Shown in pieces: positions 5,516 through 24,000 of a stretch of DNA of 24,000 nucleotides; position 1 is the first letter of the stretch; the number at the start of each line of letters is the position of its first letter. Below the pieces are notes generated by a model, which searched no databases, was not told the origin of the DNA, and saw nothing but the letters and a program-made list of their open reading frames with translations. Origin of the DNA: Phycisphaerales bacterium (lineage in GTDB: Bacteria; Planctomycetota; Phycisphaerae; Phycisphaerales; UBA1924); the NCBI GenBank assembly GCA_965228645.1, contig OZ245827.1:1911694-1935693 (forward strand). The letters are read 5' to 3'. The position numbers and the translations under genes were made by a program.

Positions 5516-6507
5516 TGCGCTTTGCTTGCATCCTTGGGATCGCGTCGATCGTCGGCTGCGCGAGCGTTGATCGCTTCGAGCCCGTGCGAGAGCCCGCCGA
5601 GGCTGCGCCGAGCGTACGCACGCCCGCGTACTCGCATGTGCTCTCGGTCGAGCCCTGGAAGTTTGGCGACAGCGCCGGCTCGATCGTCCGCACGCAGCAC
5701 TACCGCGTCTTTACGACCTCGGATCGCCCCATCATCCGCCAGGTCCTGCCCGGCTTCCTCGAAGCCTCGCTCGTGCAGTACCGCTCGGCGCTTGGCGACC
5801 TTCCGCCGCCACCGGTCAAGCTGGACACCTACCTCATGGACACGCGCCCGCAGTGGGCGGCCCTGACGCGCGCTCTCATGCAGGACCGCGCCGACATCTA
5901 CCTCCAGATCGAGCGCGGCGGGTTCGCAGCCCAGGGGCGGGGTGTCTACCGCGACCTTGGCCCCCTGACCGACACGCTCAACCTGGCAGCGCACGAGGGC
6001 TGGCACCAGTACACGCAGCTGACCTTCAAGTCGCGTCTGCCCGTCTTCCTCGAAGAGGGCATCGCGACATACATGGAAGGCTTCCGATTCGACCCGGCAA
6101 GGCCGGACGTGCCGATATTCATGCCCTGGGCGAACACGGAGCGGTACGACCAGCTCAGGCGAGCCGTGACCGCCGGGCGCCTGCTCTCGCTCGACACGAT
6201 CATGACAACCCCGCCGCAGGACCTGATCGCGACAGACCAGGAGCTGGCGCTCACGTGGTACGCGCAGGTCTGGGCGCTGGTCCACTTCCTGCACGAGGGC
6301 GAGAGCGGGCTCTATACGAACGCGCTGCACGCCATGCTCGCCGACGCGGCGACCGGCTCACAGCGTGGCGTTGCACGCCTGCCCATTTCCAGGTACATCA
6401 GCACGCCCGCAGACGAACTCGACGATCAGTATCAGGCCTTCATCCGCCAGATCACGGCGTCTGGCGCACGCAACCGGATCGTCGAGGGGCGCTCGCCCCT
6501 GCGCTGA
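5512..6507 (+). CDS. Lipoprotein with an HExxH motif (putative zinc metallopeptidase-like, possibly DUF1570-type)
   Basis: 331 aa. The signal peptide plus lipobox is MMRFACILGIASIVG|C. An HExxH motif occurs in LAAHEGWHQY. The ATG (5512) overlaps the valS stop (5513-5515) as ATGA. The DUF1570 assignment is from memory of that family and was not searched. Confidence 0.8.
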   Translation: MMRFACILGIASIVGCASVDRFEPVREPAEAAPSVRTPAYSHVLSVEPWKFGDSAGSIVRTQHYRVFTTSDRPIIRQVLPGFLEASLVQYRSALGDLPPPPVKLDTYLMDTRPQWAALTRALMQDRADIYLQIERGGFAAQGRGVYRDLGPLTDTLNLAAHEGWHQYTQLTFKSRLPVFLEEGIATYMEGFRFDPARPDVPIFMPWANTERYDQLRRAVTAGRLLSLDTIMTTPPQDLIATDQELALTWYAQVWALVHFLHEGESGLYTNALHAMLADAATGSQRGVARLPISRYISTPADELDDQYQAFIRQITASGARNRIVEGRSPLR

Positions 6508-8433
6508 TCACTCCACGGCGCCAGCCAGCTCGTCGCCCTTGGTTTCCTCGATGATGTCGGGCTCGACACCGAGGTATTCCAGAGACCGCTCGAGCACGCG
6601 GCGCGCCACGGGCGCTGCGACCCAGGAGCCGTAGTGCTGGCGTTTGCGGATGCGCTCGGGCCCCGGGTCGTCGATCACGACCACGATCGTGAGCCTTGGG
6701 TGATCAAACGGCGCACCGGCGAGGAAGCTCGAGTTGTACTGTCCTTCGTAGTAGCCCACGCGCGCCAGTGGGTACTTGAATCCCTTGGGCGCGGGCCCGA
6801 CGGGCACGTCCGCGGTGCCGGACTTGCCGAACATCGTGTACTTCCAGCCCGCCTCACCGGTTGTCAGCTTCAGGTTCGCCTCGGCCTTGGCCGCGACCTC
6901 GACGAGCGCTCCGCGCACCAGGTGCGAGACGCGCTCACCGAACACGCGCTTGGCGATCCTGGGTTCGTCCTCGGACACACCCGTCAATCGCAGATCCACG
7001 AGCGTGCCCGCGTACTCGCCCTCGCGCGCAAAGGCGCCGAACGCCCGCAGGATCTGCACGGGCGTCACGCCCACCTCGTGACCGAACGCGATCGACGTTT
7101 GTGTGTACTTGCTCCAGTCTTTGGCGGACGTGACCGCCCCCGCAGACTCCGTGCTCAGCCCGATCCGAGTGGGCCTGCCAAAGCCGAGATCGAGCACCTT
7201 CTCGCGGACCTCGAGGAATCCGAGTCGCTCGGTCGCCTTGATCATGCCGATGTTGGAGCTGTTGACGAGCACCTCGCGCCACGTCATCTCGTGGCGCCGT
7301 GTGACATCCTCGATGCGGCGCCCATAGCCCGTGCGCCAGACGCCGCCCTCGGTATTGAAAGATTCGGCTGGATCGGCCTTGCCCGACTCGGTGATCAGCG
7401 CCCAGACGAACGGCTTAAAGCTCGAGCCCGGCTCGTAGAGATGCTCCACGCACCGGTTCTTGGCCAGTGCCGGGTGCACGCCGAGGTTCTTGTCATCCGG
7501 GATCGTGTCGTACCGACCCACGGGCAACTGGTACCCGGGCTGGCGCTTCTGATCCTCGGGAATCAGCGGGATCTCGAGCAGCCCCGGGATCTCGCGCACG
7601 AGGTCAACGATCGCCAGGATCTCGCCTGTCGCCGGGTCTGCCATCACCAGCCGACCGCCCGCGGCGTCGGCTTCCATGATCCCCCGGTTGAGTTCCTCCA
7701 CCGCGATGCGCTGGAGCTCCAGATCGAGCGACATCCGCACATCGTTGCCCGGCTCGGCCGGCTTCCACGTCCCCGGCTCGATCCAGAGCGGGCGGCGCGA
7801 CGCGTCGCGCACGTACGCGCCCTCGCCCCGCTCACCCGTCAGCGTCTTGTTGAACGCGTACTCGAACCCGAGGAGCCCAGAGTGCTCGACACCCACCAGC
7901 CCGAGCAGATTGGCAAGCTGCTCCATCGCCGGGTACTCGCGGACGGGCACGTCCTCGAGATACACACCCGGGAGCTTGAGCTGACGCACGCTGGCAGCCA
8001 GATCCGGCTCGATCGGATCACCGATCGACACATACTGCACCAGCTTTGGTTTCTCACCGGTTTCCGCGGCCAAGGCGCGCGCCGCCTCGTTGGCCGCCAT
8101 CCGTGAAACAATCCGCTGCCCGACCTCGCCTGGGTCGAGCCCGAGCGTCTCGGCGAGCTTGACGACTGACTCGCCTGTTTCATCAACGAAGCGCGTCGGG
8201 TCCACAAAGACACGATTGGCAAAGCGGGTCGCCGCGATCACGCGACCCCGGCGATCGAAGATCTCGCCCCGCACGGGCTCCTCGAACCGCACGCTCTGGC
8301 GCAGCCCGACGTTCCCGGTCAGCCTCTCATCGGGCTCGAGCTGGAGCTGAGCCACCCGACCGATCACGCCCAGGAAAACCAGGACACACAGCCCGAGCAG
8401 GAGCTTGCCCACGACCGATACCCGATCATTCAT
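6508..8433 (-). CDS. ftsI: Peptidoglycan D,D-transpeptidase (class B penicillin-binding protein, FtsI-type)
   Basis: 641 aa. It has an N-terminal TM anchor (LLLGLCVLVFLGVIG) and the three transpeptidase motifs: SxxK (GSSFKPF), SxN (NSSNIG) and KSG (GKSGTA). It sits immediately downstream of the ftsL-like gene and rsmH, and its start overlaps the ftsL-like stop by 8 nt. Confidence 0.92.
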   Translation of the reverse strand: MNDRVSVVGKLLLGLCVLVFLGVIGRVAQLQLEPDERLTGNVGLRQSVRFEEPVRGEIFDRRGRVIAATRFANRVFVDPTRFVDETGESVVKLAETLGLDPGEVGQRIVSRMAANEAARALAAETGEKPKLVQYVSIGDPIEPDLAASVRQLKLPGVYLEDVPVREYPAMEQLANLLGLVGVEHSGLLGFEYAFNKTLTGERGEGAYVRDASRRPLWIEPGTWKPAEPGNDVRMSLDLELQRIAVEELNRGIMEADAAGGRLVMADPATGEILAIVDLVREIPGLLEIPLIPEDQKRQPGYQLPVGRYDTIPDDKNLGVHPALAKNRCVEHLYEPGSSFKPFVWALITESGKADPAESFNTEGGVWRTGYGRRIEDVTRRHEMTWREVLVNSSNIGMIKATERLGFLEVREKVLDLGFGRPTRIGLSTESAGAVTSAKDWSKYTQTSIAFGHEVGVTPVQILRAFGAFAREGEYAGTLVDLRLTGVSEDEPRIAKRVFGERVSHLVRGALVEVAAKAEANLKLTTGEAGWKYTMFGKSGTADVPVGPAPKGFKYPLARVGYYEGQYNSSFLAGAPFDHPRLTIVVVIDDPGPERIRKRQHYGSWVAAPVARRVLERSLEYLGVEPDIIEETKGDELAGAVE

Positions 8434-8701
8434 CGCCAGGGGTCTCCATCGGCGCTTCGATCACCCCGATCTGTTCGGGCGTGATCAGCATCGAGATCTC
8501 GGACCGCAGACGCCACAGTTCCTTGTCCTGCTGGGTCTGGCGGAGCCTGGCCGCGGATTGTTCATGAAAGGCCTGAAGCCGGAGCTGCCTGTATGACAGC
8601 AGCGAGAGCGAGATCACGCCGAGGCCGACGATCAGCACCGCGAGGCGGCTCGTCAGGCTCACGCCTGAGGCTGGGCCCTGCGTGTGATCGGCGCCTGTCA
8701 T
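8426..8701 (-). CDS. ftsL: FtsL-like small bitopic cell-division protein
   Basis: 91 aa. It has one TM helix (LAVLIVGLGVISLSLLSY) followed by a heptad/coiled-coil segment (RQLRLQAFHEQSAARLRQTQQDKELWRLRSEISML). It occupies the canonical position directly upstream of ftsI. The call rests on architecture and synteny, not sequence identity. Confidence 0.55.
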   Translation of the reverse strand: MTGADHTQGPASGVSLTSRLAVLIVGLGVISLSLLSYRQLRLQAFHEQSAARLRQTQQDKELWRLRSEISMLITPEQIGVIEAPMETPGDE

Positions 8702-9771
8702 GCCCGCTGCCCGCGCGGATAGCGCAGCTTCATCCCGACTCGGATGTCATCGGCGTCCTGGATCTGATCCTTGTTGAGCTCGATCAGCTCGTTCATGCGC
8801 CGGATCGTGCCCATCAGCTCCTGAGAGATCTCGCTGAGCGTGTCGCCCTTCTTGATCGTGTACGAGCCGTAGGCGCTGGTCGATTCCTGCGAAGGAGCCC
8901 TGCTCGTCTGCGTCTGTGCCGCAGCCTGGGGGCGGGTCTGCGCCGGAGCCTGGACCGGAGCCCGGGCGATCACGGTGCCCTCGCGCTGGGGGATCACGAG
9001 ACGGGCGCCCTCAAAGACACGCCCCTCCTCGTCGGCAGCCGACTTGTTCGCCTTGAGCAGCTCGGGCCAGAGATCCCCGTTGCCGTAGTACTTGGCCGAG
9101 ATGCCATAGAGCGTCTCGCCCTCGGCGACCATGTGCGTGATCTGCTTGACGGGCGGGGTCTGCTGGAGCGCCGGGCGCTGCTCGCCAGAAGACTGGAGCT
9201 TCCGGGCCAGCTGCTCTGCGGTGGGTGTGATCGGGTTGTTCGCAGTCGGGCGCCCGTACCCCTCGACCGGTTCGAACATGGATAGATCGAGCGGGCTCGC
9301 CTGTGCCGTCCGCCTGACTTCGACAATACTGCCCTCGTTCGAATCGATGCCCATCGCGCGATCGACAGGGTCCGAAACCTTGGGCATCAGATTGGCGACA
9401 CCGATGTCCTCGCGGGGCTGCTGCTGGTTCATCCCTGGCAGCGACTGCTGCATGGCAAGGCGGGTGCCGGGCCCCGGATCGATCTGCACCGCGTCACGAC
9501 CGGCTATCGGCAAACCCGATTCGCCGATGCCCGGAGGCACGTCCGCAAGCCGATTCACAACCATCGGCTGATCGATGTCCGTGTCGGCGATGATCGTGTC
9601 CGTCCGCGCACGCGAAAGGTGGTCGCTGATCAGCACGCCTACCGCAAGAATCAGGCTGAACCCGATGATGAGGGCGAGTTTCTGTTCGCGTGTCACGGCG
9701 CTTCCCTGCTCAGTAAGGCACGCAACGTGCCCTGGAACAACAACTTCCGTGTCGTTGCCCCGTTTCGTCAA
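8698..9771 (-). CDS. Membrane-anchored protein with two LysM peptidoglycan-binding domains
   Basis: 357 aa from TTG 9771-9769. An alternative GTG at 9696 is preceded by AGGGAAG. The TM helix is LALIIGFSLILAVGVLI. LysM 1 is HMVAEGETLYGISAKYYGNGDLWPELLKANKSAADEEGRVFEGARLVIP. LysM 2 is YTIKKGDTLSEISQELMGTIRRMNELIELNKDQIQDADDIRVGMKLRYP. Its stop overlaps the ftsL-like ATG (ATGA at 8698-8701). Confidence 0.85.
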   Translation of the reverse strand: MTKRGNDTEVVVPGHVACLTEQGSAVTREQKLALIIGFSLILAVGVLISDHLSRARTDTIIADTDIDQPMVVNRLADVPPGIGESGLPIAGRDAVQIDPGPGTRLAMQQSLPGMNQQQPREDIGVANLMPKVSDPVDRAMGIDSNEGSIVEVRRTAQASPLDLSMFEPVEGYGRPTANNPITPTAEQLARKLQSSGEQRPALQQTPPVKQITHMVAEGETLYGISAKYYGNGDLWPELLKANKSAADEEGRVFEGARLVIPQREGTVIARAPVQAPAQTRPQAAAQTQTSRAPSQESTSAYGSYTIKKGDTLSEISQELMGTIRRMNELIELNKDQIQDADDIRVGMKLRYPRGQRA

Positions 9772-9808
9772 TGGAACTCAGGCCCCGGACGCTCCGCCGG
9801 GTACGGGT

Positions 9809-10780
9809 TCATCGGCTTTCGTCCCTGATTTCCCTCAACACTTTGAGCACCCTGAATTTAGCCGAACGGGACCGAGGATTGGCCTCCTGCTCCGCCTCAT
9901 CCGCGATCGCCGGCTTGCGCGTGATCCGCTGGGCCAGACGCTCGCTCGCCAGGGCCACGAACGCTTGCTTGACCGGGCGATCCTCCAGTGAGTGGAAGCT
10001 GATCACCCCCACCCTTGCTCCGGGTGCCAGCCAGCACGCCCGCGCATCCGCAGCGCTCTCGAACTGCTTGGCCGCCCGTTCGACGTAAATCAAAAAAGCT
10101 TCGAGCGCCTCGATCTCTCCGTTGACTGCGATCCGAAGGGCCTGGAAGGTCCGGGTCGCCTGATCGATCCGACGGCGTCCCCTGGGCGGCGGGCCGGCCG
10201 CTCGCCGAACCACCTCGGCAAAGTCCGCGGTCCGCTCGAAGCGTTGTTCCTTGCGCCGGCGCACGATCGCGCCCGCGATCCGGCGTGAGGCCCGCTCCTC
10301 GCCGAACTGATAGATCAGGTCCGCAAGCTCGCCCTCGTCCATCTCATTGACGAGCTGGGCAGCCGTGATCCCCTGCGATCGATCCAGGCGCATATCCAGC
10401 GGGCCATCGTCGCGGAAGGTCAGCCCGCGCTGCGGATCCTCCACCTGATTCGAGGCAAACCCGAGATCGCCCAGGACCATGTCCGCCGAGATCCCAAGCT
10501 CCTCCATCGCGCGCGGCAGGTCCGCAAAGCTCCCGTGGATCGCTCTGATCTGGCCCTCAAACCCGCTCTGCCGCAGGTGCGCCTCAGCCCGCGACAGATT
10601 CCCCGCGTCAAGGTCGTTGAGTATCACGGTCCCGGTCGGACCGAGGCGCTGAGCGATCAGCGCCGCGTGCCCGCCCAGCCCCGCGGTCGCATCGGCGTAC
10701 ACCTCGCCAGCCTGCGGGGCGAGCAGCTCGAGCACCTGTGTCGCCAGCACCGGGATGTGTGTGTGTCCCTCTTCGGTCAT
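9809..10780 (-). CDS. rsmH: 16S rRNA (cytosine1402-N4)-methyltransferase
   Basis: 323 aa. HIPVLATQVLELL..VYADATAGLGGHA...ILNDLD...DLGFASNQVEDPQRGLTFR..GPLDMRL...ISFHSLEDRPVK...NPRSRSAKFRVL is a typical RsmH/MraW over its full length. Confidence 0.95.
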   Translation of the reverse strand: MTEEGHTHIPVLATQVLELLAPQAGEVYADATAGLGGHAALIAQRLGPTGTVILNDLDAGNLSRAEAHLRQSGFEGQIRAIHGSFADLPRAMEELGISADMVLGDLGFASNQVEDPQRGLTFRDDGPLDMRLDRSQGITAAQLVNEMDEGELADLIYQFGEERASRRIAGAIVRRRKEQRFERTADFAEVVRRAAGPPPRGRRRIDQATRTFQALRIAVNGEIEALEAFLIYVERAAKQFESAADARACWLAPGARVGVISFHSLEDRPVKQAFVALASERLAQRITRKPAIADEAEQEANPRSRSAKFRVLKVLREIRDESR

Positions 10781-12615: not shown

Positions 12616-13467
12616 ATGCCTGAGCCGGCAAAGCCCCTCAAGCTCTGCGTCCTGGCCAGCGGCTCGTCGGGCAACTGCTCCCTGCTCACGTACGGCCAGG
12701 GGCTGACCACCCGCGCGTGCCTCATCGACGCGGGGCTCTCACCGCGCAGAACGCGCACCTTCCTCGCAGACCTAGGCCTCCGATTCGACCAGCTCGATCA
12801 CATCCTCGTCACACACTTCGATCGCGATCACTTCCATCTGGGCTGGCAGGCGGCCCGCCTTGATCACATCCGCATCCACGCCCACGCGGGGCACTCCCCT
12901 TCGGCGCACAACACCGGAGTTCGCCCGAGACACTTCTCGTTCTTCAGCGAGCCCTTCACGCTCTGGGATTCGCTCAGCGTTGGCTTTGCACGCCTGGCGC
13001 ACGACAGCCAGGGCGTGACCGCCTTCCGCATCGAGAACGAGCTCGGTTCGCTCGGGTACGCCACTGACCTGGGTCGCCCGGCGCCCGAGCTCATCCGCTC
13101 GCTCCACGGCGTGGGAACGCTGGCCATCGAGAGCAACTACTGCCCCCAAATGCAGCTCGCATCCAGCAGGCCCGCGTTCCTGAAGAAGCGCATCATGGGC
13201 GGCGCGGGGCACCTGTCCAACCAGGAATCCGCCCTGGCGGTCCGCGATATCGCACCCGCAGCCCATGTCGTGCTCCTGCACCTCTCGCGTCAGTGCAACC
13301 GCCCGGCGATCGCGACCACCGAGCACGCCGGCACCGAGTGCGAGGTCATCGTTTCGGGGCAGTTCGAGCACACGCCCTGGATCGATGTCGCGCCCGCGCG
13401 AGCCGCGGCGCTGCCCGAGCCGGAGCCCGCGCAGCCCTCACTCTTCGCTGCGACCGCGTATCGATGA
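12616..13467 (+). CDS. MBL-fold metallo-hydrolase (YycJ/WalJ-like)
   Basis: Starting at ATG 12616: MPEPAKPLKLCVLASGSSGNCSLL..ACLIDAGLS...HILVTHFDRDH...YATDLG...LAIESNY...RIMGGAGHLSNQESA. The order and spacing of these blocks match the YycJ-type beta-lactamase fold. The metal motif is HFDRDH rather than HxHxDH. Confidence 0.85.
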   Translation: MPEPAKPLKLCVLASGSSGNCSLLTYGQGLTTRACLIDAGLSPRRTRTFLADLGLRFDQLDHILVTHFDRDHFHLGWQAARLDHIRIHAHAGHSPSAHNTGVRPRHFSFFSEPFTLWDSLSVGFARLAHDSQGVTAFRIENELGSLGYATDLGRPAPELIRSLHGVGTLAIESNYCPQMQLASSRPAFLKKRIMGGAGHLSNQESALAVRDIAPAAHVVLLHLSRQCNRPAIATTEHAGTECEVIVSGQFEHTPWIDVAPARAAALPEPEPAQPSLFAATAYR

Positions 13468-14249
13468 GCGAGCACGCCCACCAGCACGAGCCCGAGCGGC
13501 GCATCTGGCCGACGCAGCACTCGTCCTCGGCCAGCCAGCTGAGCCGGGCCTCGATCGGGCTGCGCCGGATGATGCGCCGGATCGTCGGATCGGGCTCGGT
13601 CACCACACCCGATGGCTGTCGGTATCGACCGGTCGGGCATCACTCGCTGACGCGCTCGCTCTCGAAGCGCGGCCCGGGATACAAGGACTACGACGTCCTG
13701 TTCCCCTCGGGCGAGCAGCTTCGCATCCGCGTCGAACCCCATCGCGTCTTTGCAGACCTGACGGGCTCACGATTCGCATTCGAGCAGGAAATGCTGGGCG
13801 GGCGGATCAGGCCTGGGAGTCGGGCTCTGATCATCAACGCGGGCACAGGCGATACCGCCCACTGGCTTTCGAACGAAGTCGGTCCCTCGGGCGCGGTTGT
13901 TTCCATCGAAGCCGACGATCCAAGCGCCCAGTTTGCCAGACTCAGGTATCCCGGGGACTCCATCTCGCACGAGCATGGCGACGGATCGCTCCTCTCCAGC
14001 GAGCCCAACGAGGCATTCGAGTTTGTCCTCGCCCCGCGAGCATTCGACCCGAACCAGGATCAGATCGATCTATCGCCTCTGTGTCGCCTGGTCGCGCCGG
14101 GGGGCTCGATCGCGGTCAGCACCGCCTCGGGCTCGGCGCTCGCCTCTGGGCTGTCAGAACGCCTGGCCTCGTGTCTGGAGCAGGATTCAAAGGTCCAACT
14201 GCTCGAACGCGCGGGCATTACCCTCGCCCTCGCTGCCAGGGCGAACTAG
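13464..14249 (+). CDS. Class I SAM-dependent methyltransferase (substrate unknown)
   Basis: ATG 13464 overlaps the MBL gene stop (ATGA). The Gly-rich SAM motif I is ALIINAGTGDTAHWL, followed by VVSIEAD (motif II acidic residue) and LVAPGGSIAV. The track ORF start at 13293 lies inside the MBL gene and is rejected. Confidence 0.7.
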   Translation: MSEHAHQHEPERRIWPTQHSSSASQLSRASIGLRRMMRRIVGSGSVTTPDGCRYRPVGHHSLTRSLSKRGPGYKDYDVLFPSGEQLRIRVEPHRVFADLTGSRFAFEQEMLGGRIRPGSRALIINAGTGDTAHWLSNEVGPSGAVVSIEADDPSAQFARLRYPGDSISHEHGDGSLLSSEPNEAFEFVLAPRAFDPNQDQIDLSPLCRLVAPGGSIAVSTASGSALASGLSERLASCLEQDSKVQLLERAGITLALAARAN

Positions 14250-14261
14250 GCTTGCCCAGAC

Positions 14262-14663
14262 ATGACACAAACCAACGACCCCGATATCACTACCCAGAAA
14301 CCCAGGCAGCGCGAGCAGGCCCGCACCTTTGCGGTCGAGGCGGCTCGATGCCTGAAGGACACCCAGTGCTCCGATGTGGTGGTGCTCGACCTCAAGGGGC
14401 AGAGCCCAGTGGCTGAGCTCCTGGTCATCGCAACGGGCACGTCTGACCGCCAGATGAAGAGCGCCGCAGACGATGTCTCCGAATTGGCGTCCAAGACCGG
14501 TCATGCGCTGATCCGCCAGGCTGCGGACACACGGCACACCTGGATCGTTTCCGACTTCGGCGACGTGGTCATGCACATATTCGAGCCCGACGCACGCGAC
14601 TACTACGACCTTGAACGCCTCTGGGGCGCTGCGGAGAAAATCAGCTGGGCACGCGAGGAGTAA
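14262..14663 (+). CDS. rsfS: Ribosomal silencing factor RsfS (Iojap family)
   Basis: 133 aa. DVVVLDLKGQSPVAELLVIATGTSDRQMKSAADDV...WIVSDFGDVVMHIFEPDARDYYDLERLW is the canonical RsfS/DUF143 pattern. Confidence 0.9.
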   Translation: MTQTNDPDITTQKPRQREQARTFAVEAARCLKDTQCSDVVVLDLKGQSPVAELLVIATGTSDRQMKSAADDVSELASKTGHALIRQAADTRHTWIVSDFGDVVMHIFEPDARDYYDLERLWGAAEKISWAREE

Positions 14664-15825: not shown

Positions 15826-15958
15826 GACAGACCCCCGTGTCAAACAAGGCAAACTTGGAGCGGCAGGCGAGGCCCGGACGATAACCCGTGCAGGACGCCC
15901 ACGGGCCAGCGCCAAGCGGCGCGGCTGCGTGGCGGATCCAATTTGCGGGAGCCCAGCC

Positions 15959-17449
15959 GTGCGCACAGTCGTCATCGTCAATCAAAAGGGTGGCTGCGGC
16001 AAGACCACCACCGCGATCAACCTCGCCGGGATCTGGGCCAGCCGGGGCAAAAGAGCCCTGCTGATCGATCTGGACCCGCAGTCGCACTGCGCCGCGGGTC
16101 TTGCGATCCCCGAGCAACGGATCGATCTGGACATCAGCGACGCGCTCATCACCGATGCGCCGCTGGACCCGAATCGACTCGTCTGGAGCGCGGGACGCAA
16201 TCTCGATCTGATTCCGAGCCGAACCAAGCTGGCGGGCCTCGAAGCCGCCCGGGGCGGGCTTGCGACCAAGCCAGACAAGGAACTCCGACTCGCCCGCGTC
16301 GTCAAGCGCTTCGAGAACGACTACGACGTCTGCCTCATCGACTGCTCGCCCTCGATCGGTCTGCTGACCTACAACGCGCTCGCCGCGGCGACGGACGTGC
16401 TCGTCCCCGTCGAAACCGGCTTCTTCAGCCTGCAAGGCGCACTCAAGCAGGCCAAAACGATCGAATCCCTCCAGCGCCGTCTGGGCGTCAATGCGCCCTT
16501 CTACCTGCTGGCCACACTCCACGAGCCGGAATCCGTGCTCGCCTGCGACCTGCTCCAGGAACTCCGCAGGCGCTTTGGCGATCAGGTCATCCCGACCCCG
16601 ATCAGACGGGATCTGAAGCTCAAGGAGGCCGTCAGCTTCGGTCAGCCCGCGGTCGAATACGCCCCGGAATCGACCGGCGCCCGCGATCACTCGGATCTGG
16701 CACACTGGCTCGAGGCCAAGTGGCGTCCGACCGATCGACCGACGCATCCGGTGGCCCTGAGCGCCCAGCCCGCGGACTCGTTCCCGGCTGGACGCCCGGA
16801 GATGGACCTCGACCTCTGTGTTTCCCAGGCACCCGAGATCCGGGAGCAGCCCAGTGACTTCGGGTTCGGTCAGCCCGAGTTTGAGCCCGCGACCGCAGCA
16901 GCTTCGACCGCGGTCGCGACGGCACCGGTCAGCGAAGCTCGAATCAACGCCCTCACTCAGCCCAGAGCGGGCGACACGCGCGTCGCAGAGATCGCTGCAC
17001 TCGCCAAGCGCCTGCGTGAAGCGACCCTCCAGGGCTCGCCTGCTCGCTCGGTGACACAGGCACCGACGACCGCGGTCCGCCTCGAAGAATCAAAGCCCGA
17101 GATCGAGCCCTCCGGTGCCCCATCCAAGACCAAGGAAGCCCTCGGCAGGGAACTGCTGGGCGTGCGCCAGACGCCCCAGGGTGTGCTCTTTGTCCAGCCC
17201 ATCGCGACCGGTCGCCAGCTGGCGATCGCGGGCGACTTCAACGGATGGTCCATCCGGGCCAACCGCATGATCGCCGATCCGCGTCTTGGCGTGCACCAGA
17301 CGTGCGTCCACCTGCCTCCGGGTCGACACCGCTACCGCGTCGTCGTGGACGGGCGGTGGATCGCAGACCCCCACAACCCGGTCATCGAACCCAACGAGTA
17401 CGGTGAAACCAACAGCGTGGTTGTGGTCGAGCCCCCCAAGGGGACATAA
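15959..17449 (+). CDS. ParA/MinD-type deviant Walker A ATPase fused to a C-terminal CBM48 / AMPK-beta-like glycogen-binding domain
   Basis: GTG 15959 is preceded by GGGAG (15947-15951). There is no in-frame ATG between the track start at 15626 (inside aroB) and this codon. The N-terminus is VRTVVIVNQKGGCGKTTTAINLA (KGGxGKT), followed by LLIDLDPQ and VCLIDCSPS (Walker B); the ATPase domain spans about 15959-16730. A ~150-aa Pro/Ala/Glu-rich linker follows. The C-terminal region (17180-17434), LAIAGDFNGWS...VHLPPGRHRYRVVVDGRWIADPHNP...GETNSVVVV, aligns by eye with AMPK-beta VYLSGSFNNWS...LPEGEHQYKFFVDGQWTHDPSEP...GTVNNIIQV. Confidence 0.85.
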   Translation: MRTVVIVNQKGGCGKTTTAINLAGIWASRGKRALLIDLDPQSHCAAGLAIPEQRIDLDISDALITDAPLDPNRLVWSAGRNLDLIPSRTKLAGLEAARGGLATKPDKELRLARVVKRFENDYDVCLIDCSPSIGLLTYNALAAATDVLVPVETGFFSLQGALKQAKTIESLQRRLGVNAPFYLLATLHEPESVLACDLLQELRRRFGDQVIPTPIRRDLKLKEAVSFGQPAVEYAPESTGARDHSDLAHWLEAKWRPTDRPTHPVALSAQPADSFPAGRPEMDLDLCVSQAPEIREQPSDFGFGQPEFEPATAAASTAVATAPVSEARINALTQPRAGDTRVAEIAALAKRLREATLQGSPARSVTQAPTTAVRLEESKPEIEPSGAPSKTKEALGRELLGVRQTPQGVLFVQPIATGRQLAIAGDFNGWSIRANRMIADPRLGVHQTCVHLPPGRHRYRVVVDGRWIADPHNPVIEPNEYGETNSVVVVEPPKGT

Positions 17450-17505
17450 TCCCGCATCAGAACACACACCGGCGGCGGAGCCGCTGAACTTCCCAGGAGA
17501 TCACG

Positions 17506-18756
17506 ATGAGCTCGGAAGCTCCATCCGGTCGTCCGTCCAGCAGCGTGTCCGGTCTCGAAGCCTTCGATGACCTTGCGGACCTCTTCCTCGGCGAAGAGCC
17601 CATCGTCACGCCTCGCCAGACCAGCGACACTTCAGTCCACGTCAGCTCGCTCGTCGCCGGGCACCTGCCCGTGATCGCGGCCCCGTGGATCAGCCAGCAC
17701 GCCCGCGACATCTCCCGCACGCTCGCGGCACCGATCGCGGTGCTGAGCCGATCGGGCGATCGCACCACGCTCGACCTGTACAACGCGCCCGCCCTCCAGG
17801 AACAGCACACGATCGAGGGGGCCATCGAGCAGGCGATCGCAGCCCGTGTGCGCCGGTTCCTGATCCGGACGGACGCGGTGAGCGAGCTCTCGGCGTTCGA
17901 TCTCGACAGGGTCGACTCGGTCACGCTTCTGACCGGTGCGGACGACGCCGCGGTGGTCGGCGCGTACCGCGCGATCAAGGGACTTGTCGCGGACGCCTCG
18001 GAGCTCGACGAGCGCCCGATGGTCCTGAACCTTGCTGTCATGGGCTCGGATCGCACAAGGTCCCGCGGGGCCGCGGAAAAGATCCGCAAGGCGGCCCGTT
18101 CGTTCCTGCAGACCGGGCTTGCGGACGTGACGATGAGCGAGAAGATCGCCGCCGGTGGCTCGAGCGTGCGCACGTTCGATGGCTCAACGACCCTGCAGCT
18201 CGAAGAGATCATCGCCAGAATCCCGCGTCAGCTGCCTGCGGTCGCTCCGGCTCAGGTTGACACTGCGGGCCCTTTGCGTCTGGCGGGGCACGGGAGCAGC
18301 GAGAAGCCGACCGGTGAACCCAAAGCTGTCCCGACCGAGGCCAAACCGATTCGCCCGGATGTCAGCGCCTCCCGCCTTGGCCCTCTTGAGAGCGCCAATG
18401 GGACGAACGCTTCGCTGCTCGGACTCTCGCGGATCGAGGCTCGCTGCCCGTACGCGGACGACATCGAGATCGCTGTCGATCACGAGGGTCGAGCGCACCT
18501 GATCGCGGTGGCGGAGGGTCAGGACATGGCCCGCCCGCTCGAGTCGCTCCAGATCGCCAACGACTGGATCGGGGCGCACCTGACGCTGCTGGCGTCTGCG
18601 ACCGGCGGGCGCGTGAAGGCCAACCCGCCTCTGGCGGCGGCGAGACACCTGATCGTCGACCACGCCGCGTCGGCGCGCCGCCTGCTCGACTCGGACCTGA
18701 AAGTCTACATCAAGGCCCGCGGGCAGCAGGAAACGCTCTGCGTGCCGCTGAACTAA
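17506..18756 (+). CDS. Hypothetical 416-aa protein. The N-terminal half may be a P-loop-less ParA/MinD-like fold, and the C-terminal domain is unknown.
   Basis: ATG 17506 has AGGAG at 17495-17499. The gene lies 56 nt after the ParA-like gene and ends at a strong terminator. It has G/C third-position bias and a non-repetitive composition. See findings for the manual alignment to MinD. I recognised no catalytic motifs. Confidence 0.75.
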   Translation: MSSEAPSGRPSSSVSGLEAFDDLADLFLGEEPIVTPRQTSDTSVHVSSLVAGHLPVIAAPWISQHARDISRTLAAPIAVLSRSGDRTTLDLYNAPALQEQHTIEGAIEQAIAARVRRFLIRTDAVSELSAFDLDRVDSVTLLTGADDAAVVGAYRAIKGLVADASELDERPMVLNLAVMGSDRTRSRGAAEKIRKAARSFLQTGLADVTMSEKIAAGGSSVRTFDGSTTLQLEEIIARIPRQLPAVAPAQVDTAGPLRLAGHGSSEKPTGEPKAVPTEAKPIRPDVSASRLGPLESANGTNASLLGLSRIEARCPYADDIEIAVDHEGRAHLIAVAEGQDMARPLESLQIANDWIGAHLTLLASATGGRVKANPPLAAARHLIVDHAASARRLLDSDLKVYIKARGQQETLCVPLN

Positions 18757-18782
18757 TCGACCGATTGAGAGTGACCAAAGAA

Positions 18783-18815
18783 AGAGCCGCGACCATACGG
18801 TCACGGCTCTTTTTC
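18783..18815. terminator. Bidirectional rho-independent terminator between convergent genes
   Basis: AGAGCCGCGACC (18783-18794), loop ATAC, GGTCACGGCTCT (18799-18810) form a 12-bp stem with one mismatch. The stem is flanked by AAAGAAAG upstream and TTTTT downstream, so each strand sees a stem followed by a U-tract. Confidence 0.7.
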
Positions 18816-18835
18816 GTTGAGTTGAGTTTGTCGGT

Positions 18836-20155
18836 TCAGGCGGTCTCGGCCCGCTTGACGCGGATCTCGCTGAGCTTCTTCTTCTCGCGGATGGTCGTCT
18901 CGTCGACGACAAACTCCACGCCCTCGGCGTCCATGTCGGGCAGATCGTACATCAGCTCGAGCATGGTCTCTTCCATCACAGCGCGCAGGGCGCGGGCACC
19001 GGTCTCACGCTTGGCGGCCTTCTCGGCCAGCGCCTTGAGCGCGCCGTCGGTGAAGGACAGCTTGGCGCCTTCGAGCTCGAACTGCTTCTGGTACTGACGC
19101 ACCAGCGCATTGCGCGGCTCGGTGAGCACGCGGACGAGCGCATCGACCGGGAGCGGACGCAGGGCCGCGATGATGGGCAGTCGCCCGATGAACTCGGGGA
19201 TCATGCCGTATTCGACGAGGTCGTCGGGGGTGACCATCTGGAGCAGGTCGCCCTTTTCCTGGTCTTCCGAGTGCGTCGAGCCCGTATCGACGAAGCCGAT
19301 TCGGGTCTTTCCGATGCGCCGGCGGATGATCTCGTCCAGCCCAACGAACGTGCCGGCGCAGATGAAGAGCACCTGCGTCGTGTCGATCTGGATGTACTGC
19401 TGCTCGGGGTGCTTGCGTCCGCCCTGAGGGGGGACATTGGCGACGGTGCCCTCGAGCATCTTGAGGAGGCTCTGCTGCACGCCCTCGCCCGAGACGTCGC
19501 GGGTGATCGAGACGTTGTTGGAGGTCTTGCCGATCTTGTCGATCTCATCGATGTAGATCACGCCGCGCTGCGCCTGCTCGACGTCGAAGTCAGCGGCCTG
19601 GAGCAGCTTGAGCATGAGGTTCTCGACGTCTTCTCCGACGTAACCGGCCTCGGTGAGCGTGGTCGCGTCGCCGATGGCGAAGGGGACCTTGAGCACGCGG
19701 GCCAGGCTCTTTGCGAGGAGGGTCTTGCCGCAGCCGGTCGGCCCGATCATGAGGATGTTTGATTTGTCGAGTTCGACGTCGCCGTCGTTCGTTCCTCGCT
19801 GGATTTCCTGCAGGCGCTTGTAGTGGCTTCGCACCGCGACGGCGAGCGGCTTCTTGGCCTCGTCCTGCCCGATGACGTACTCATCGAGGAAGGTCTTGAT
19901 CTCAGAGGGCGTCGGCACTTCTGTGAACAGCGGCGCATCGGCGCTGACGCGCCGGCGTTCCTGCTTGAAAATGTTCTGGCAGAGATCGACGCAGTTGGAG
20001 CAGATGTAAACGTCGTTTGGCCCTTCGACCATGGGGCCGACGTCGCGGCTGGTTTTGCCGCAGAACGAGCACGTTGTCACGCGCCTCCCGCGGAAGCCCT
20101 CGCCCGTGGTGCCCGGGGTCTCGCCGGTGCCGTCGTTATCGCGACCTTTGGCCAT
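18836..20155 (-). CDS. clpX: ATP-dependent Clp protease ATP-binding subunit ClpX
   Basis: 439 aa. It has an N-terminal zinc finger (CSFCGK...CSNCVDLC), Walker A (GPTGCGKT), Walker B (IIYIDEIDK) and a ClpP-docking loop (RIGF). It is ClpX-like over its full length. Confidence 0.97.
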
Positions 20156-20667: not shown

Positions 20668-21429
20668 TCAGAACGTCGTGATCGCGCGACGGATCGGGAG
20701 CACGAGCGCCGGGATCATCGCGTGCTCGACCAGGTGCTCGCCCCGACGGGCCAGCTCCGTGTAGGTCGACGTCAGTTCGTCGAGATTCGTCAGTGGGCCG
20801 CTCTGCCTCGCGGTCAGGTAGATGCTGATCGGCTCGCCCGTGTGCTCGCCCTCGCGGGCGGAGCCGTGCTGACGCGTTTTGACTTCGTACTGGATCTCGG
20901 TGCCCGGGCTGTCGGGGACGTTGGTCGTCAGGACGGGCTGGCAATCGGTTACGGAGCAATCGTGCACGAGCAGATTGGCCAGGGGCGAGTCGGCGACCAG
21001 CGCCGAGTAGACCGCCTCGTCGTGGTTGCCGCTGGCGATCAGATCCGCGCCGAAGAGCAGCTCGATGGAATCGATATCCAGAGGGCTGATGTTGAGGTAA
21101 TACGGGATGACCTCGAGGATGTGCCTGTGCAGGTCGTGCGCCGAGCGAAAGTCTGCGGGGTTGACGATGCCCGAGCGGATGTTCCGCGAGCGGACCGCGA
21201 GCCATCGGTAGGGCGACTCGCCTTGAGCGGTTTCGAGTGCCAGCTCCTCGCCGTGACGACCGAACTGGCTCATCGAGGGATACTGCCGGCGGACACGGTC
21301 GAATAATTCGAGCACGGTCTCGCGGCTCTTTGTCAGCTCGAGCTTCAGGCTGACCTTGAGATTGACGTAGGCATCGGAGACGAGAGCCTTGAGGCTGTCG
21401 AGCGTGTCGTATGAGGTGGCACCGGACAT
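20668..21429 (-). CDS. Hypothetical protein (253 aa), no recognised domain
   Basis: ATG 21429-21427 has a strong SD, AAGGAGGAG, 8 nt upstream. Codons are mostly G/C-ending and the composition is balanced (MSGATSYDTLDSLKALVSDAYVNLKVSLKLELTKSRETVLELFDRVRRQYP...). The overlapping ORFs at 20236-21306(+) and 20651-21454(-) are Arg/Asp/Gly-rich junk. The track start at 21507 is an upstream extension. Confidence 0.75.
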   Translation of the reverse strand: MSGATSYDTLDSLKALVSDAYVNLKVSLKLELTKSRETVLELFDRVRRQYPSMSQFGRHGEELALETAQGESPYRWLAVRSRNIRSGIVNPADFRSAHDLHRHILEVIPYYLNISPLDIDSIELLFGADLIASGNHDEAVYSALVADSPLANLLVHDCSVTDCQPVLTTNVPDSPGTEIQYEVKTRQHGSAREGEHTGEPISIYLTARQSGPLTNLDELTSTYTELARRGEHLVEHAMIPALVLPIRRAITTF

Positions 21430-21552
21430 CTTGATCGCTCCTCCTTGAAACCATGATCGGCCGGGCCTGAAGGATACGCTGACGCGGGCGTATGCGTTCC
21501 GCCCCACCGCTGCATACAGGCGAACTTCTGTCGGCTGAGCGCGAGCGGCGTG

Positions 21553-21825: not shown

Positions 21826-22143
21826 GGAGCTTAGGTCCGAGATCCGCGTTTCGGGGCCAGAAAGCGTGTCTGTTAGGGCCTTGGATTGAAAGTCGATGGA
21901 CGAAGCGGAATCCCGTGCTACCGTTTCCGTAGAGAAGCAGGCAGAGCGCGACCCCCATGGTCTGTGAGCCGGGAGCCATCAAGGCGTCCTCCGGCCCGGA
22001 CAACCCCAAACGGCGCGCCCGGGCCCCTTTGAATCATTCGAATCGGCGTTGGCCGAGCCGGTGCGAGCAGGCACTGGTCGAACGCTGCATGGTCGGTTGA
22101 AGCCGTCGCATGCGGTCTGAGTTACGGATACAGGGATCCCGGG

Positions 22144-24000
22144 ATGACCCCGGGCATTTGGGGCATGGATCGGCCTGTGATGCACGACACCTCTGGAACT
22201 GACGATGTCCAGCGCGTCCGCGACGCGTCGGACATCGTCCGCGTGGTGGGCGAGCACGTCGAGCTCCGCGCCAAGGGGCGCGAATACGTCGGGCTCTGCC
22301 CCTTCCACGACGACAAGAAGCCCTCGATGAATGTCGTGCCCACCAAGCAGATCTTTCATTGCTTCAGCTGCGGGGCGGGGGGCGACGTCTTCACGTTCGT
22401 GCAGGACTACCACAAGATGACCTTTCGCGAGGCGCTCAAGTTCCTGGCCGAGCGCGCGGGTCTCAAGCTCGAATCGCGCGGGCGCCGGCGCAGCGCCTCC
22501 GACGATGCCGACAGCGTGAACCGATCGGTCCTCCTGGAAGCCAACGAGCTGGCCGACAAGTTCTTCCGCTCGATCCTGCGCCACCCCGAGCACGGCCAGA
22601 AGGCCCGCGACATTATCGCACGCCGGGGCATCAGCCAGGACATGGTCGACGCCTTCGGGCTCGGGGCCGCTCCGGACCGCTGGGATGGGCTGGCGCTCTA
22701 TCTCGCGGAGAAGGGGCACAAACTCGATCCGTTCCTCAGCGCAGGCCTGCTGAAATCCTCGGAGCAGGGCAAGGGCCCCTACGACGCGCAGCGGAATCGC
22801 CTTGTCTTCCCGATCCGCGATCAGATCGGGCGCGTCATCGCCTTCGGCGGGCGCCGGATCAACGACGAAGACGAGCCCAAGTACATCAACAGCGCTGAGT
22901 CGGCGGCCTTCGACAAGTCCGCGACGCTCTTTGGGCTCGACCTTGCCAGCCGGGCGATCCAGAAAGAGGGCATTGCGGTCATCGCCGAGGGGTACACCGA
23001 CGTCATCGCCTGCCACCAGGCGGGGCTGACCAACGCGGTCGCGACGCTCGGAACAGCGCTGACGCCCAAGCACGCCAAACTGCTTCAGAGGCTCTGTCAC
23101 ACTGTGGTCCTGCTCTTCGATGGCGACGAGGCGGGCCAGAAAGCCGCGGACCGCGCGGTTGAGGTGTTCCTGACGCTTCCGATCGACGCGAAGATCGCGA
23201 CGCTGGCTGGGTTCACGGACGCCAAGGACCCGGACGAGCTTCTGAAGCGTGAGGGCGGTCTGGGCGTGCTGCGCTCGGCGATCGCCGGCGCGACCGAGCT
23301 GCTCGCGTACCGAATCGCTCGGCTGCGCTCGAGGCTGGCCAGCGCGGGCCCCGCTCAGACCGAGCGGGCGATCCGAGACGAGCTCCGCTCTCTTGGCGCC
23401 CTCGGGCTTGCGAGCGCGGACAAGGTTCGCTGGCAGTTTGTCGTGCGCCGCTTGAGTGAGCTGACCGGGCTTGACGCCCAGACGATCGCGGATCTCGTCC
23501 GCGAGGGCGCCCAGCGCGGCACGCGCGGCCCGACCTTTCAGGACCTCTCCGAGGCGGAAACAGCGCCTGCTCGTCACCGGCACAAGTCGATGAATGCGGA
23601 GATCCTCGGGTGCCTGCTGTCGCTACCGGAGCGCTGGATCTCGCTGGGCCAATCGCAGGATGACCTCAAAGCCGCGACAGAGGGATCTCCTTACGAGGCG
23701 GTCTTCGAGGCGATGCGGGACGTCGCGGAGCACACCGGGCGGACAGAGATCGCCCGGGTGGTGGACCTGATGCGTGAGCGTGAGCAGGACCACCGCGTCG
23801 TGGTGCAGCTCGAGCAGGACATCTCCCGTCGGCTCGTTGGCAACCGCGAGCAGATCGCGGAGACGCTCACGATCTGTCTGCGGAATCTCTCGCAACACGT
23901 TGCAATCATCGAACCCAAACCCGATTCCGTGGCGGACAGGTTGGCTCGATTGAAGACCATGAAAGAGCAGTCGGGGCCCAATACGCGGCTCCTGCCCCGT
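22144..24000 (+). CDS. dnaG: DNA primase, partial (3' end lies beyond the right window edge)
   Basis: The frame is open from 22144 to 24000. The track does not list it because there is no stop in the window. Zinc finger: GLCPFHDDKKPSMNVVPTKQIFHCFSCGAGGDVFTF. Further blocks are RLVFPIRDQIGRVIAFGGRR, KYINSAES..FDKSATLFG and the TOPRIM motif IAEGYTDVIACHQAG..NAVATLGTALT...VVLLFDGDEAGQKAA. Three in-frame ATGs (22144, 22165, 22180) could be the start. Confidence 0.93.
   Translation, partial: MTPGIWGMDRPVMHDTSGTDDVQRVRDASDIVRVVGEHVELRAKGREYVGLCPFHDDKKPSMNVVPTKQIFHCFSCGAGGDVFTFVQDYHKMTFREALKFLAERAGLKLESRGRRRSASDDADSVNRSVLLEANELADKFFRSILRHPEHGQKARDIIARRGISQDMVDAFGLGAAPDRWDGLALYLAEKGHKLDPFLSAGLLKSSEQGKGPYDAQRNRLVFPIRDQIGRVIAFGGRRINDEDEPKYINSAESAAFDKSATLFGLDLASRAIQKEGIAVIAEGYTDVIACHQAGLTNAVATLGTALTPKHAKLLQRLCHTVVLLFDGDEAGQKAADRAVEVFLTLPIDAKIATLAGFTDAKDPDELLKREGGLGVLRSAIAGATELLAYRIARLRSRLASAGPAQTERAIRDELRSLGALGLASADKVRWQFVVRRLSELTGLDAQTIADLVREGAQRGTRGPTFQDLSEAETAPARHRHKSMNAEILGCLLSLPERWISLGQSQDDLKAATEGSPYEAVFEAMRDVAEHTGRTEIARVVDLMREREQDHRVVVQLEQDISRRLVGNREQIAETLTICLRNLSQHVAIIEPKPDSVADRLARLKTMKEQSGPNTRLLPR

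Follow-up and report, generated by a model that had tools for sequence, protein, structure and literature searches.

A conserved ParA-CBM48 ATPase and its partner protein in Phycisphaerae: a candidate module for the spatial organization of glycogen

What would a bacterium do with a ParA-type ATPase that carries its own carbohydrate-binding module? ParA/MinD ATPases are general positioners in bacteria, with DNA, carboxysomes, chemoreceptor arrays, flagella, and division sites as known cargos. In the genome of a Phycisphaerales bacterium, a stretch of 24,000 nucleotides (nt) that was analyzed as a whole (the window) encodes such a fusion protein (gene 1), followed by a second protein without a named family (gene 2). 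An earlier interpretation made from the letters alone (the sequence-only reading) had taken the two genes for a self-contained system that positions glycogen granules, of a kind not previously described. Full-text literature searches likewise gave no description of a ParA-CBM48 protein with this partner.

Both open reading frames were confirmed in the window as earlier described, including the gaps that precede them and the AGGAG signal upstream of gene 2. Gene 1 (positions 15959 to 17449; 496 amino acids [aa]) and gene 2 (17506 to 18756; 416 aa) lie on the forward (+) strand, as do all of the gaps, domains, and motifs given below. A gap of 133 nt (15826 to 15958) separates aroB from gene 1; it contains a GGGAG ribosome-binding site (15947 to 15951), and no sigma-70-like promoter was found in it. 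The GTG start codon of gene 1 at 15959 agrees with the MRTVVIVNQKGG N termini of homologs. A spacer of 56 nt (17450 to 17505), with AGGAG at 17495 to 17499, leads to the ATG start codon of gene 2. Downstream, a bidirectional intrinsic terminator (18781 to 18814, assigned to neither strand) is common to gene 2 and the convergent clpX gene. Its stems (18781 to 18794 and 18799 to 18812) are bordered by an A-run on the 5' side and by a T-run on the 3' side that extends to 18814. The hairpin has a folding energy of -28.2 kcal/mol (z = -4.2), which was reached by none of 200 shuffled sequences, and the proposal of a closing terminator was thus borne out, although a simple terminator scan did not pick up the hairpin at 18781 to 18812. 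A repeat scan returned the terminator alone, and an Rfam scan was empty. The two genes have a single operon-like layout, with one terminator at its end. A replication origin at the cumulative GC-skew minimum (18 to 19 kb) was considered and rejected, because this minimum coincides with the coding-strand switch.

The two genes are a real, conserved unit. In all 77 informative loci, a gene for a ParA protein with a CBM ended directly upstream of the gene 2 homolog, and a check in the reverse direction agreed in 3 of 3 cases; the two-gene unit that had been proposed from a single genome therefore recurs in relatives. The median distance between the two genes was 94 nt across loci, and the pair was intact even where the flanking genes differed (loci L007 and L011). 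Its conserved neighbors in 91 loci were aroB, rsfS, clpX, and dnaG, and the pair appears to span the class Phycisphaerae, among core genes. No ParB-like cluster was found near the pair in the 91 loci, in line with the earlier expectation that no known cargo system would be linked to this ATPase elsewhere. The window itself was confirmed to be free of ParB, min, che, fla, carboxysome, and bcs genes, and a search for parS sites that allowed up to 3 mismatches gave 0 matches.

The first 256 aa of gene 1 (15959 to 16726) correspond to a Soj-like ParA ATPase domain. All of its nearest solved relatives are chromosomal ParAs, i.e., M. xanthus ParA (8RAY, the best match, with an E value of 6e-42), T. 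thermophilus Soj (1WCV), and H. pylori Soj (6IUB), with E values up to 4e-33. Among Pfam families, the domain matched AAA_31 (143 bits, cutoff of 27; E value of 1e-41) and CbiA (65.9 bits, cutoff of 25.4). The deviant Walker A motif KGGCGKTT (aa 10 to 17; 15986 to 16009), which fits the consensus KGGxxGK[ST] with its signature lysine, was unchanged in all 121 homologs, even at the unusual Cys13, and D37 and D39 (Motif 2/Walker A') and D128 (Walker B) were kept in the same 121. Judged from these motifs, gene 1 is an intact Soj-like deviant-Walker-A ATPase in which every catalytic motif is present, as the sequence-only reading had supposed. Some database entries call gene 1 relatives "YhjQ/BcsQ," and partial Pfam and TIGR matches point in that direction. 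However, gene 1 differs from BcsQ in carrying a CBM48, its score of 96 against TIGR03371 (BcsQ) is below the cutoff of 158, and bcs genes were absent from the window and from all 91 loci. Gene 1 starts straight at strand 1 of the ATPase and has no signal peptide; therefore, its ligand must be cytoplasmic.

The ATPase domain is followed by a low-complexity, variable, disordered linker of ~140 aa (aa 257 to 396; 16727 to 17146); among relatives, the spacing between ParA and CBM ranges from 69 to 288 aa, with a median of 130. Embedded in the linker is a conserved basic helix (aa 340 to 357, TRVAEIAALAKRLREATL; 16976 to 17029), of which R341 was kept in 112 and A349 in 114 of the 121 homologs. The motif RxL[LF]G[VA]RxT (aa 397 to 405) then introduces a CBM48/AMPK1_CBM domain (17147 to 17437, motif included). 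In the profile search, aa 417 to 493 matched PF16561 (AMPK1_CBM) at 48.8 bits (cutoff of 26.8; E value of 8e-13). PF16561 was present in all 120 top homologs, and a family HMM detected the CBM domain in 77 of 77 loci; the ParA of locus L006, in which the CBM is absent on record, scored 55 bits with this HMM. Residues W430, Y459, R460, W467, and D470 were invariant (121/121), and N485 was kept in 116 of the 121. The domain aligned to the CBMs of AMPK beta and to the CBM48s of SEX4, LSF1, and pullulanase. The sugar-contact residues of AMPK beta1 were reportedly identified by Polekhina et al. in 2005 as W100, K126, W133, and N150, positions that we take to be those of W430, R460 (Lys in AMPK), W467, and N485 in gene 1. 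The equivalent of W430 in AMPK beta2 is W99 (PMC4650587). By profile match and residue conservation, the C-terminal module of gene 1 is a CBM48 with conserved sugar-binding residues, and the earlier assignment of a carbohydrate-binding module was upheld.

For gene 2, the HMM searches that the sequence-only reading had suggested matched no family: Pfam (with the single sequence and with all 24 members of the family), NCBIfam, PHROGs, and PADLOC gave no hits, and neither did a profile search of the PDB. Given the absence of family matches and the core-genome context, an assignment to a defense system was dropped. The gene 2 profile matched ~1,416 clusters at 50% identity, the named members of which all belong to Phycisphaerae or Planctomycetota. 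An AF2 model of gene 2 (pLDDT of 77 overall) suggests four parts. Near the N terminus is an amphipathic, docking-type helix, FDDLADLFLG (aa 20 to 29; 17563 to 17592); its motif, [YF]DxL[AT][DE]LFLG, is shared by 220 of the 258 family members, with a central residue that is always acidic. Next comes a MinD/ParA-like alpha/beta domain (aa 45 to 240; 17638 to 18225; pLDDT of ~90), in which GHLPV (17659 to 17673) occupies the would-be Walker A loop; a GxxxxGK[ST] P-loop is found in only 1 of 258 family members. The best Foldseek match of the model was FlhG (4RZ2; E value of 1.6e-5), with FleN, ParF, and Chlorobium ParA (3EA0) also retrieved (target TM scores of 0.40 to 0.48). At the level of predicted structure only, it holds that this domain has a ParA-like fold without a P-loop. 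The idea that gene 2 is a degenerate copy of the gene 1 fold thus stood as regards the predicted fold but not as regards sequence, since BLASTP and hhalign comparisons of the two proteins gave no sequence or profile similarity; a gene duplication thus finds no support. A disordered, length-variable linker (aa 250 to 298; 18253 to 18399; pLDDT of <50) leads to a C-terminal alpha/beta domain (aa 300 to 416; 18403 to 18753; pLDDT of 94) with invariant residues C314, P315, E321, G328, H331, W354, and H381. Foldseek gave no significant match for this domain (best E value of 0.012, TM scores of ≤0.49), in agreement with its earlier description as unrecognized. The weak matches were mostly to PD-(D/E)xK nuclease-fold proteins, an identity that was rejected because the match was nonsignificant, the order of secondary structures was noncanonical, and an ExK motif was absent.

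We propose, with a probability of roughly 45%, that the pair is a two-gene ParA/MinD-type spatial-organization module acting on cytoplasmic alpha-glucan (glycogen), a reading for which we infer the cargo, the matrix, and the role of the partner. ATP would drive gene 1 into a sandwich dimer and thereby pair two weak CBM48 modules. The dimer, and not the monomer, would bind glycogen particles avidly, by a logic like that of MinD's weak membrane helix, and it may bind the nucleoid as well. A nucleoid-based ratchet is doubtful because the position of the non-specific DNA-binding Arg (Bs Soj R189/Mx R238) holds a basic residue in no more than 46 of the 121 homologs (T in 47, K in 39, A in 16, S in 7, and R in 7; K in the window protein); R216, R217, and K/R222 close to it are conserved. 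The partner would dock onto the ATPase dimer, most likely with its N-terminal helix, as do the peptides of ParB, MinE, and McdB, and docking would bring about ATP hydrolysis and release. In keeping with such docking, the hydrophobic pocket for the ParB peptide in M. xanthus ParA is mostly retained in gene 1 (I133, L135, Y/F138, and L175). Repeated cycles could then spread, separate, or anchor glycogen particles and so govern their distribution in the cell and their inheritance at division. Gene 2 would most simply be an adaptor or regulator of gene 1, and the claim of a self-contained system that needs no adaptor was accordingly overstated.

Several observations weigh against an action on glycogen. 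No glycogen-metabolism gene was linked to the pair in any of the 91 loci, and glycogen granules, which the sequence-only reading had named as the positioned cargo, are a putative cargo. Glycogen particles are usually small and numerous, and active partition of such particles seems needless. Conservation like that of a core gene, in the vicinity of housekeeping genes, would fit better with a function more central than the handling of granules.

Known systems offer partial parallels to the proposed glycogen module. Like McdA/McdB and orphan systems such as ParC/ParP, PomXYZ, MipZ, and FlhG, the pair consists of a ParA-type ATPase followed by a fast-evolving, partly disordered partner from a small family. 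Systems of the McdA/McdB type position a non-DNA cytoplasmic structure, as the pair may also do. In those systems, cargo is recognized by a separate partner, whereas in gene 1 the putative cargo-binding module is fused to the ATPase, and gene 2 differs from their partners in its predicted pseudo-ATPase domain. The similarity of gene 1 to McdA is weak (~46 bits), and genes for carboxysomes, chemotaxis, or flagella are absent from the vicinity. MinD binds the membrane through a C-terminal amphipathic helix and needs dimerization to do so. Gene 1 would resemble it in having a weak C-terminal surface-binding element that is effective in the ATP dimer only, but the surface would be glycogen, reached by a folded CBM48 on a long linker, rather than the membrane; in addition, minC and minE do not accompany the pair, and the score against TIGR01968 (MinD) is 37, below the cutoff of 213. 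AMPK beta, plant PTST/FLO6, and the SEX4/LSF phosphatases share with gene 1 the PF16561 domain, the same sugar-contact residues, the placement of a CBM on a non-glycosidase, and presumptive targeting to alpha-glucan. Unlike gene 1, none of these eukaryotic or plastidial proteins is fused to a ParA/MinD ATPase.

The closest sequence relatives of the ATPase would also fit a different cargo. The pair could be a chromosome-segregation or division-site system of Phycisphaerae that lack FtsZ, in which gene 2 replaces ParB, MipZ, or PomXY and the CBM48 is a regulatory input or sink, such that the ATPase is titrated by the glycogen load, much as AMPK is by glycogen. The ParA domain scores 147 bits to M. 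xanthus ParA, compared with ~45 bits to McdA/MinD. As a known system, chromosomal ParABS has in common with the pair three ATPase motifs (deviant Walker A, Motif 2, and Walker B) and the order of ATPase then partner, and the gene 2 helix, with its charged residue and its four conserved hydrophobic ones, recalls the ParB peptide (L11/R13/L15/L18/I19). The apparently class-wide occurrence of the pair amid core genes fits this alternative, as do a dcw-like run (rsmH, a LysM protein, and an FtsI-like PBP) 5 to 9 kb upstream in the window, mraZ near the pair in L006, and the weak likeness of the gene 2 C-terminal domain (nonsignificant, as noted) to DNA-binding nuclease folds. Planctomycetota divide without FtsZ (PMC12283558). 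However, the pair has no ParB/Srx CTPase domain, helix-turn-helix, or parS, the gene 1 score against the NCBIfam ParA_partition equivalog (92.8) is below the cutoff of 180, and the DNA-binding Arg is variable. The helix of gene 2 has an acidic rather than a basic residue at its center. The docking site for ParB R13 on ParAs comprises invariant Y81 and E117 and conserved E82 and D110 (M. xanthus numbering; PMC12462528). In the 121 close homologs of gene 1, the equivalent of Y81 is always G, S, or A, that of D110 is K or R in 119, and the E117 region bears a 3-aa insertion. A divergent marine subclade (L004 type) retains the Tyr. The fused CBM48 itself sets gene 1 apart from ParABS, and its perfectly conserved sugar site argues that glucan binding is central and not accessory. 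On balance, we consider a segregation or division role unlikely. A bolder form, in which the pair is a core spatial organizer that places the chromosome or division site, gated by the glycogen reserve through the CBM48 and with the pseudo-ATPase in the place of ParB/MipZ/PomXY, is a long shot; if true, it would tie carbon storage directly to cell-cycle geometry.

Alternatively, nothing may be moved at all: the CBM48 would target a static complex to glycogen, as in plant PTST proteins or the AMPK beta subunit, with the ATPase switching, according to the energy state, between recruitment and release of glycogen enzymes. Non-enzymatic CBM48 targeting or sensor proteins are known (the matches include AMPK beta, SEX4, and LSF1), the ParA fold by its nature provides a dimer switch that depends on ATP/ADP, and the variable DNA-binding Arg leaves no sign of a gradient-forming surface. 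We nevertheless regard such a scaffold as quite improbable, since a glycogen enzyme was linked in 0 of 91 loci and the strict conservation of a partner that has a helix of the docking type, together with a complete set of catalytic residues, suggests a system that cycles rather than a passive tether. Very unlikely is a module that is CBM48-like in fold only and binds another ligand or a protein (e.g., the partner, as in AMPK, where the CBM packs against the kinase domain), with a different cargo: the AMPK CBM does make protein contacts that carbohydrate modulates (PMC4650587) and the genomic context lacks a glycogen link, but the reported AMPK beta sugar-contact residues match W430, R460, W467 (121/121), and N485 (116/121).

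Should the pair act on glycogen, as we propose, it may be the first known machinery for the spatial organization of glycogen reserves in a cell. Polysaccharide storage particles would then represent a class of cargo or matrix that is new, and the fusion of cargo recognition to the ATPase would challenge the usual division of labor, in which the ATPase sits on the matrix and the cargo carries the adaptor. The partner, unlike those of known systems, would use a catalytically inactive version of the same fold as its framework. The pair also provides a tangible entry point to cell biology in Phycisphaerae, a class that has been little studied and that divides in the absence of FtsZ.

The interface between the two proteins was examined through covariation of the partner helix with the ATPase surface in 57 dereplicated pairs, which gave phylogenetic signal only. 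A charge swap between the acidic partner helix and K/R90 of the ATPase (D110 in canonical ParA) was unsupported by this analysis and is kept as an idea only; the subclade with the canonical Tyr still has an acidic partner helix. ParA partners usually evolve faster than their ATPases. The same was observed here, with ~30% identity in the partner where the ATPase keeps ~50%, and gene 2 defines a large unnamed family of partner proteins (~1,400 clusters at 50% identity).

The pair is classed here with the ParA/MinD positioning systems, as a new variant, and consists of a ParA-CBM48 fusion of 496 amino acids (gene 1; positions 15959 to 17449, plus strand) and a partner protein of 416 amino acids (gene 2; positions 17506 to 18756, plus strand). 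Both co-oriented ORFs proposed in the sequence-only reading were recovered at these coordinates. The GTG start of gene 1 agrees with the MRTVVIVNQKGG N-termini of homologs, lies 133 nt from aroB, and has GGGAG 7 nt 5' of it; gene 2 follows after 56 nt and is preceded by AGGAG (17495 to 17499). A closing hairpin (stems at 18781 to 18794 and 18799 to 18812, with an A-run 5' and a T-run 3') faces the convergent clpX; its folding energy was -28.2 kcal/mol (z = -4.2), a value equaled in 0 of 200 shuffles. The cumulative GC skew has its minimum at 18000 to 19000. A replication origin was rejected as its source; the minimum coincides with the plus/minus coding-strand switch at the shared terminator and is read as a coding-strand effect.

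What is shown is the set of components and the linkage of the two genes. All three independently picked ParA-CBM homologs had a gene 2 family gene downstream (E values of 1e-81 to 1e-89), and distant gene 2 homologs (23 to 31% identity) were all located directly downstream of a ParA or ParA-CBM gene. A metagenome scan provided 80 further loci. Synteny was kept in every one of the 77 loci whose upstream sequence was at least 1.5 kb long, each having a same-strand ORF with ParA and CBM upstream of the gene 2 homolog (median of 94 nt from the ORF end to the first aligned gene 2 codon). The pair was also present in two loci with different flanks (L007 and L011). A gene 2 profile matched 1,416 cluster representatives (clustering at 50% identity); for 882, the E value was ≤1e-30. 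All named matches came from MAGs of Phycisphaerales, Phycisphaeraceae, or Planctomycetota, and their annotations did not go beyond "hypothetical protein," "AAA family ATPase," or "chromosome partitioning protein."

We tentatively interpret the pair as an ATP-cycling system that acts on cytoplasmic glycogen (probability of roughly 0.45), and we infer all of its mechanistic steps. Dimerization would bring two tethered CBM48s together for avid glucan binding, docking of the partner would trigger hydrolysis, and the cycle would distribute or anchor the particles. The suggestion that no such system had been described agrees with a full-text collection of roughly 8 million articles and preprints, in which word matching (most subscription journals being outside its coverage) found neither a ParA-CBM48 protein nor ParA-driven glycogen positioning.

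Gene 1 matched AAA_31 (E value of 1e-41), CbiA, and, partially, BcsQ in Pfam and reached none of the NCBIfam equivalog cutoffs. The nearest relatives of its ATPase domain are chromosomal ParAs, i.e., M. xanthus ParA (8RAY; E value of 6e-42) and the Soj proteins of T. thermophilus and H. pylori, whereas its resemblance to McdA and MinD is far lower. That the pair organizes segregation or division, with glycogen as an input, is unlikely. Neither ParB nor glycogen genes were found in any locus looked at, and the window contains no parS, consistent with the lack of nearby ParB/parS noted from the sequence. A static targeting scaffold is quite improbable. KGGCGKTT, D37, D39, and D128 showed no variation across the 121 gene 1 family members. 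Because ATPase strand 1 opens the protein, the gene 1 product is predicted to be cytoplasmic. Additionally, the Cys within Walker A (residue 13; 15995 to 15997) is invariant in the family, as is the His-Cys of DPQSHC (residues 43 and 44, 16085 to 16090; 121/121), and Cys129 in the Walker B motif IDCSP (16343 to 16345) occurs in 120 of 121 members. In canonical Soj, the Cys13 position is Val and the His-Cys position is Gly-Asn. At the nucleotide pocket, the Cys and His residues of the family might together create a redox or metal site. A ParA-CBM subclade (L060, L064, L067, L068, L070, and L073 to L076) has an acidic low-complexity insertion of 25 to 35 amino acids right before Walker B.

The C-terminal domain of gene 1, previously assigned to CBM48 from the sequence alone, matched AMPK1_CBM at residues 417 to 493 above the Pfam cutoff (48.8 versus 26.8 bits) and could be aligned to AMPK beta CBMs and the CBM48s of plant SEX4/LSF1. 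Polekhina et al. reportedly listed W100, K126, W133, and N150 as AMPK beta1 contacts in 2005. In beta2, W99 is a key residue for glycogen/cyclodextrin binding (PMC4650587), and W430 is its counterpart in gene 1. W430, Y459, R460, W467, and D470 are invariant in the family, and N485 is present in 116 of 121 members. A CBM-like domain with a ligand other than glucan is a very improbable reading. The linker between the ATPase domain and the CBM is of low complexity and variable (69 to 288 amino acids in relatives; median, 130), with one conserved basic helix (residues 340 to 357). Immediately N-terminal of the CBM is a near-invariant RxL[LF]G[VA]RxT motif (residues 397 to 405, 17147 to 17173; G401 in 121, R403 in 111, and T405 in 117 of 121 members), which bears a faint likeness to the ParA-binding "LGRGL" peptides found in ParB. 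The motif might function in cis, or it might be no more than an additional CBM strand.

Gene 2 belongs to no named family; Pfam, NCBIfam, PHROG, PADLOC, and PDB sequences yielded no relative, even when the 24 aligned members were all searched or a profile was used. Its AlphaFold model, built from 24 sequences (pLDDT of 77), has a short N-terminal helix (17 to 28), an alpha/beta domain (45 to 240), a disordered stretch (250 to 298), and a compact C-terminal domain. Foldseek matched the alpha/beta domain to FlhG (E value of 1.6e-5), FleN, ParF, and a Chlorobium ParA. Strand 1 is followed by a loop with GHLPV in place of Walker A, and just 1 of the 258 family members has GxxxxGK[ST]. These features support, at the fold level, the description of gene 2 as ParA-like without a P-loop. 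At the sequence level, BLASTP and hhalign detected no relationship between gene 2 and gene 1. The C-terminal domain, modeled separately (pLDDT of 94), had no significant structural match (E values of ≥0.012 for the best matches). Most of the best matches were PD-(D/E)xK folds, yet topology and motifs did not fit, and this assignment was rejected.

The motif [YF]DxL[AT][DE]LFLG is found in the N-terminal helix of 220 of the 258 gene 2 family members; its center is always acidic. Gene 1 was aligned to M. xanthus ParA and compared with published work on that protein and ParB (PMC12462528). The hydrophobic ParB-peptide pocket is mostly retained (I133, L135, Y/F138, and L175). Y81, the R13-docking Tyr, is replaced by G, S, or A in every one of the 121 close homologs. 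D110 gives way to K or R in 119 of them, and a 3-amino-acid insertion with R98 follows. Only 46 of the 121 have a basic residue at the position of the DNA-binding R238. These differences led to the idea that the partner helix might dock in a ParB-like, charge-reversed manner. However, a divergent marine subclade (L004 type) has retained the canonical Tyr to which ParB R13 docks, and its partner helix is still acidic; a covariation test was uninformative.

The conserved gene order is lpxA-like, MBL-fold gene, rsfS, aroB, the pair, clpX (opposite strand), a conserved hypothetical protein, and dnaG. Downstream of clpX, a hypothetical protein (279 amino acids; 20668 to 21507, minus strand) that had no match in Pfam or PHROG shows conservation across 35 related loci. 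A dcw-like run (6508 to 10780, minus strand) lies 5 to 9 kb upstream of the pair and includes rsmH/mraW (9809 to 10780), a LysM-domain protein at the usual place of ftsL (8698 to 9771), and an FtsI-like PBP (6508 to 8433), all on the minus strand; in locus L006, mraZ is about 6 kb from the pair. No Rfam elements were detected in the window. Three long ORFs of 534, 331, and 230 amino acids (21979 to 23583, minus strand; 5512 to 6507 and 8593 to 9285, plus strand) matched nothing in Pfam at E values of ≤1e-5 or in PHROG, and some may not be genes, given the 65% GC DNA. A 318-amino-acid ORF (13293 to 14249, plus strand), likewise without a Pfam match at E values of ≤1e-5, occupies the position of a class I SAM methyltransferase in relatives (L004). 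As called, the aroB ORF begins at TTG 14611 and overlaps rsfS, whose end is at 14663; aroB more likely starts from the in-frame ATG at 14671 (MTFSVPV).
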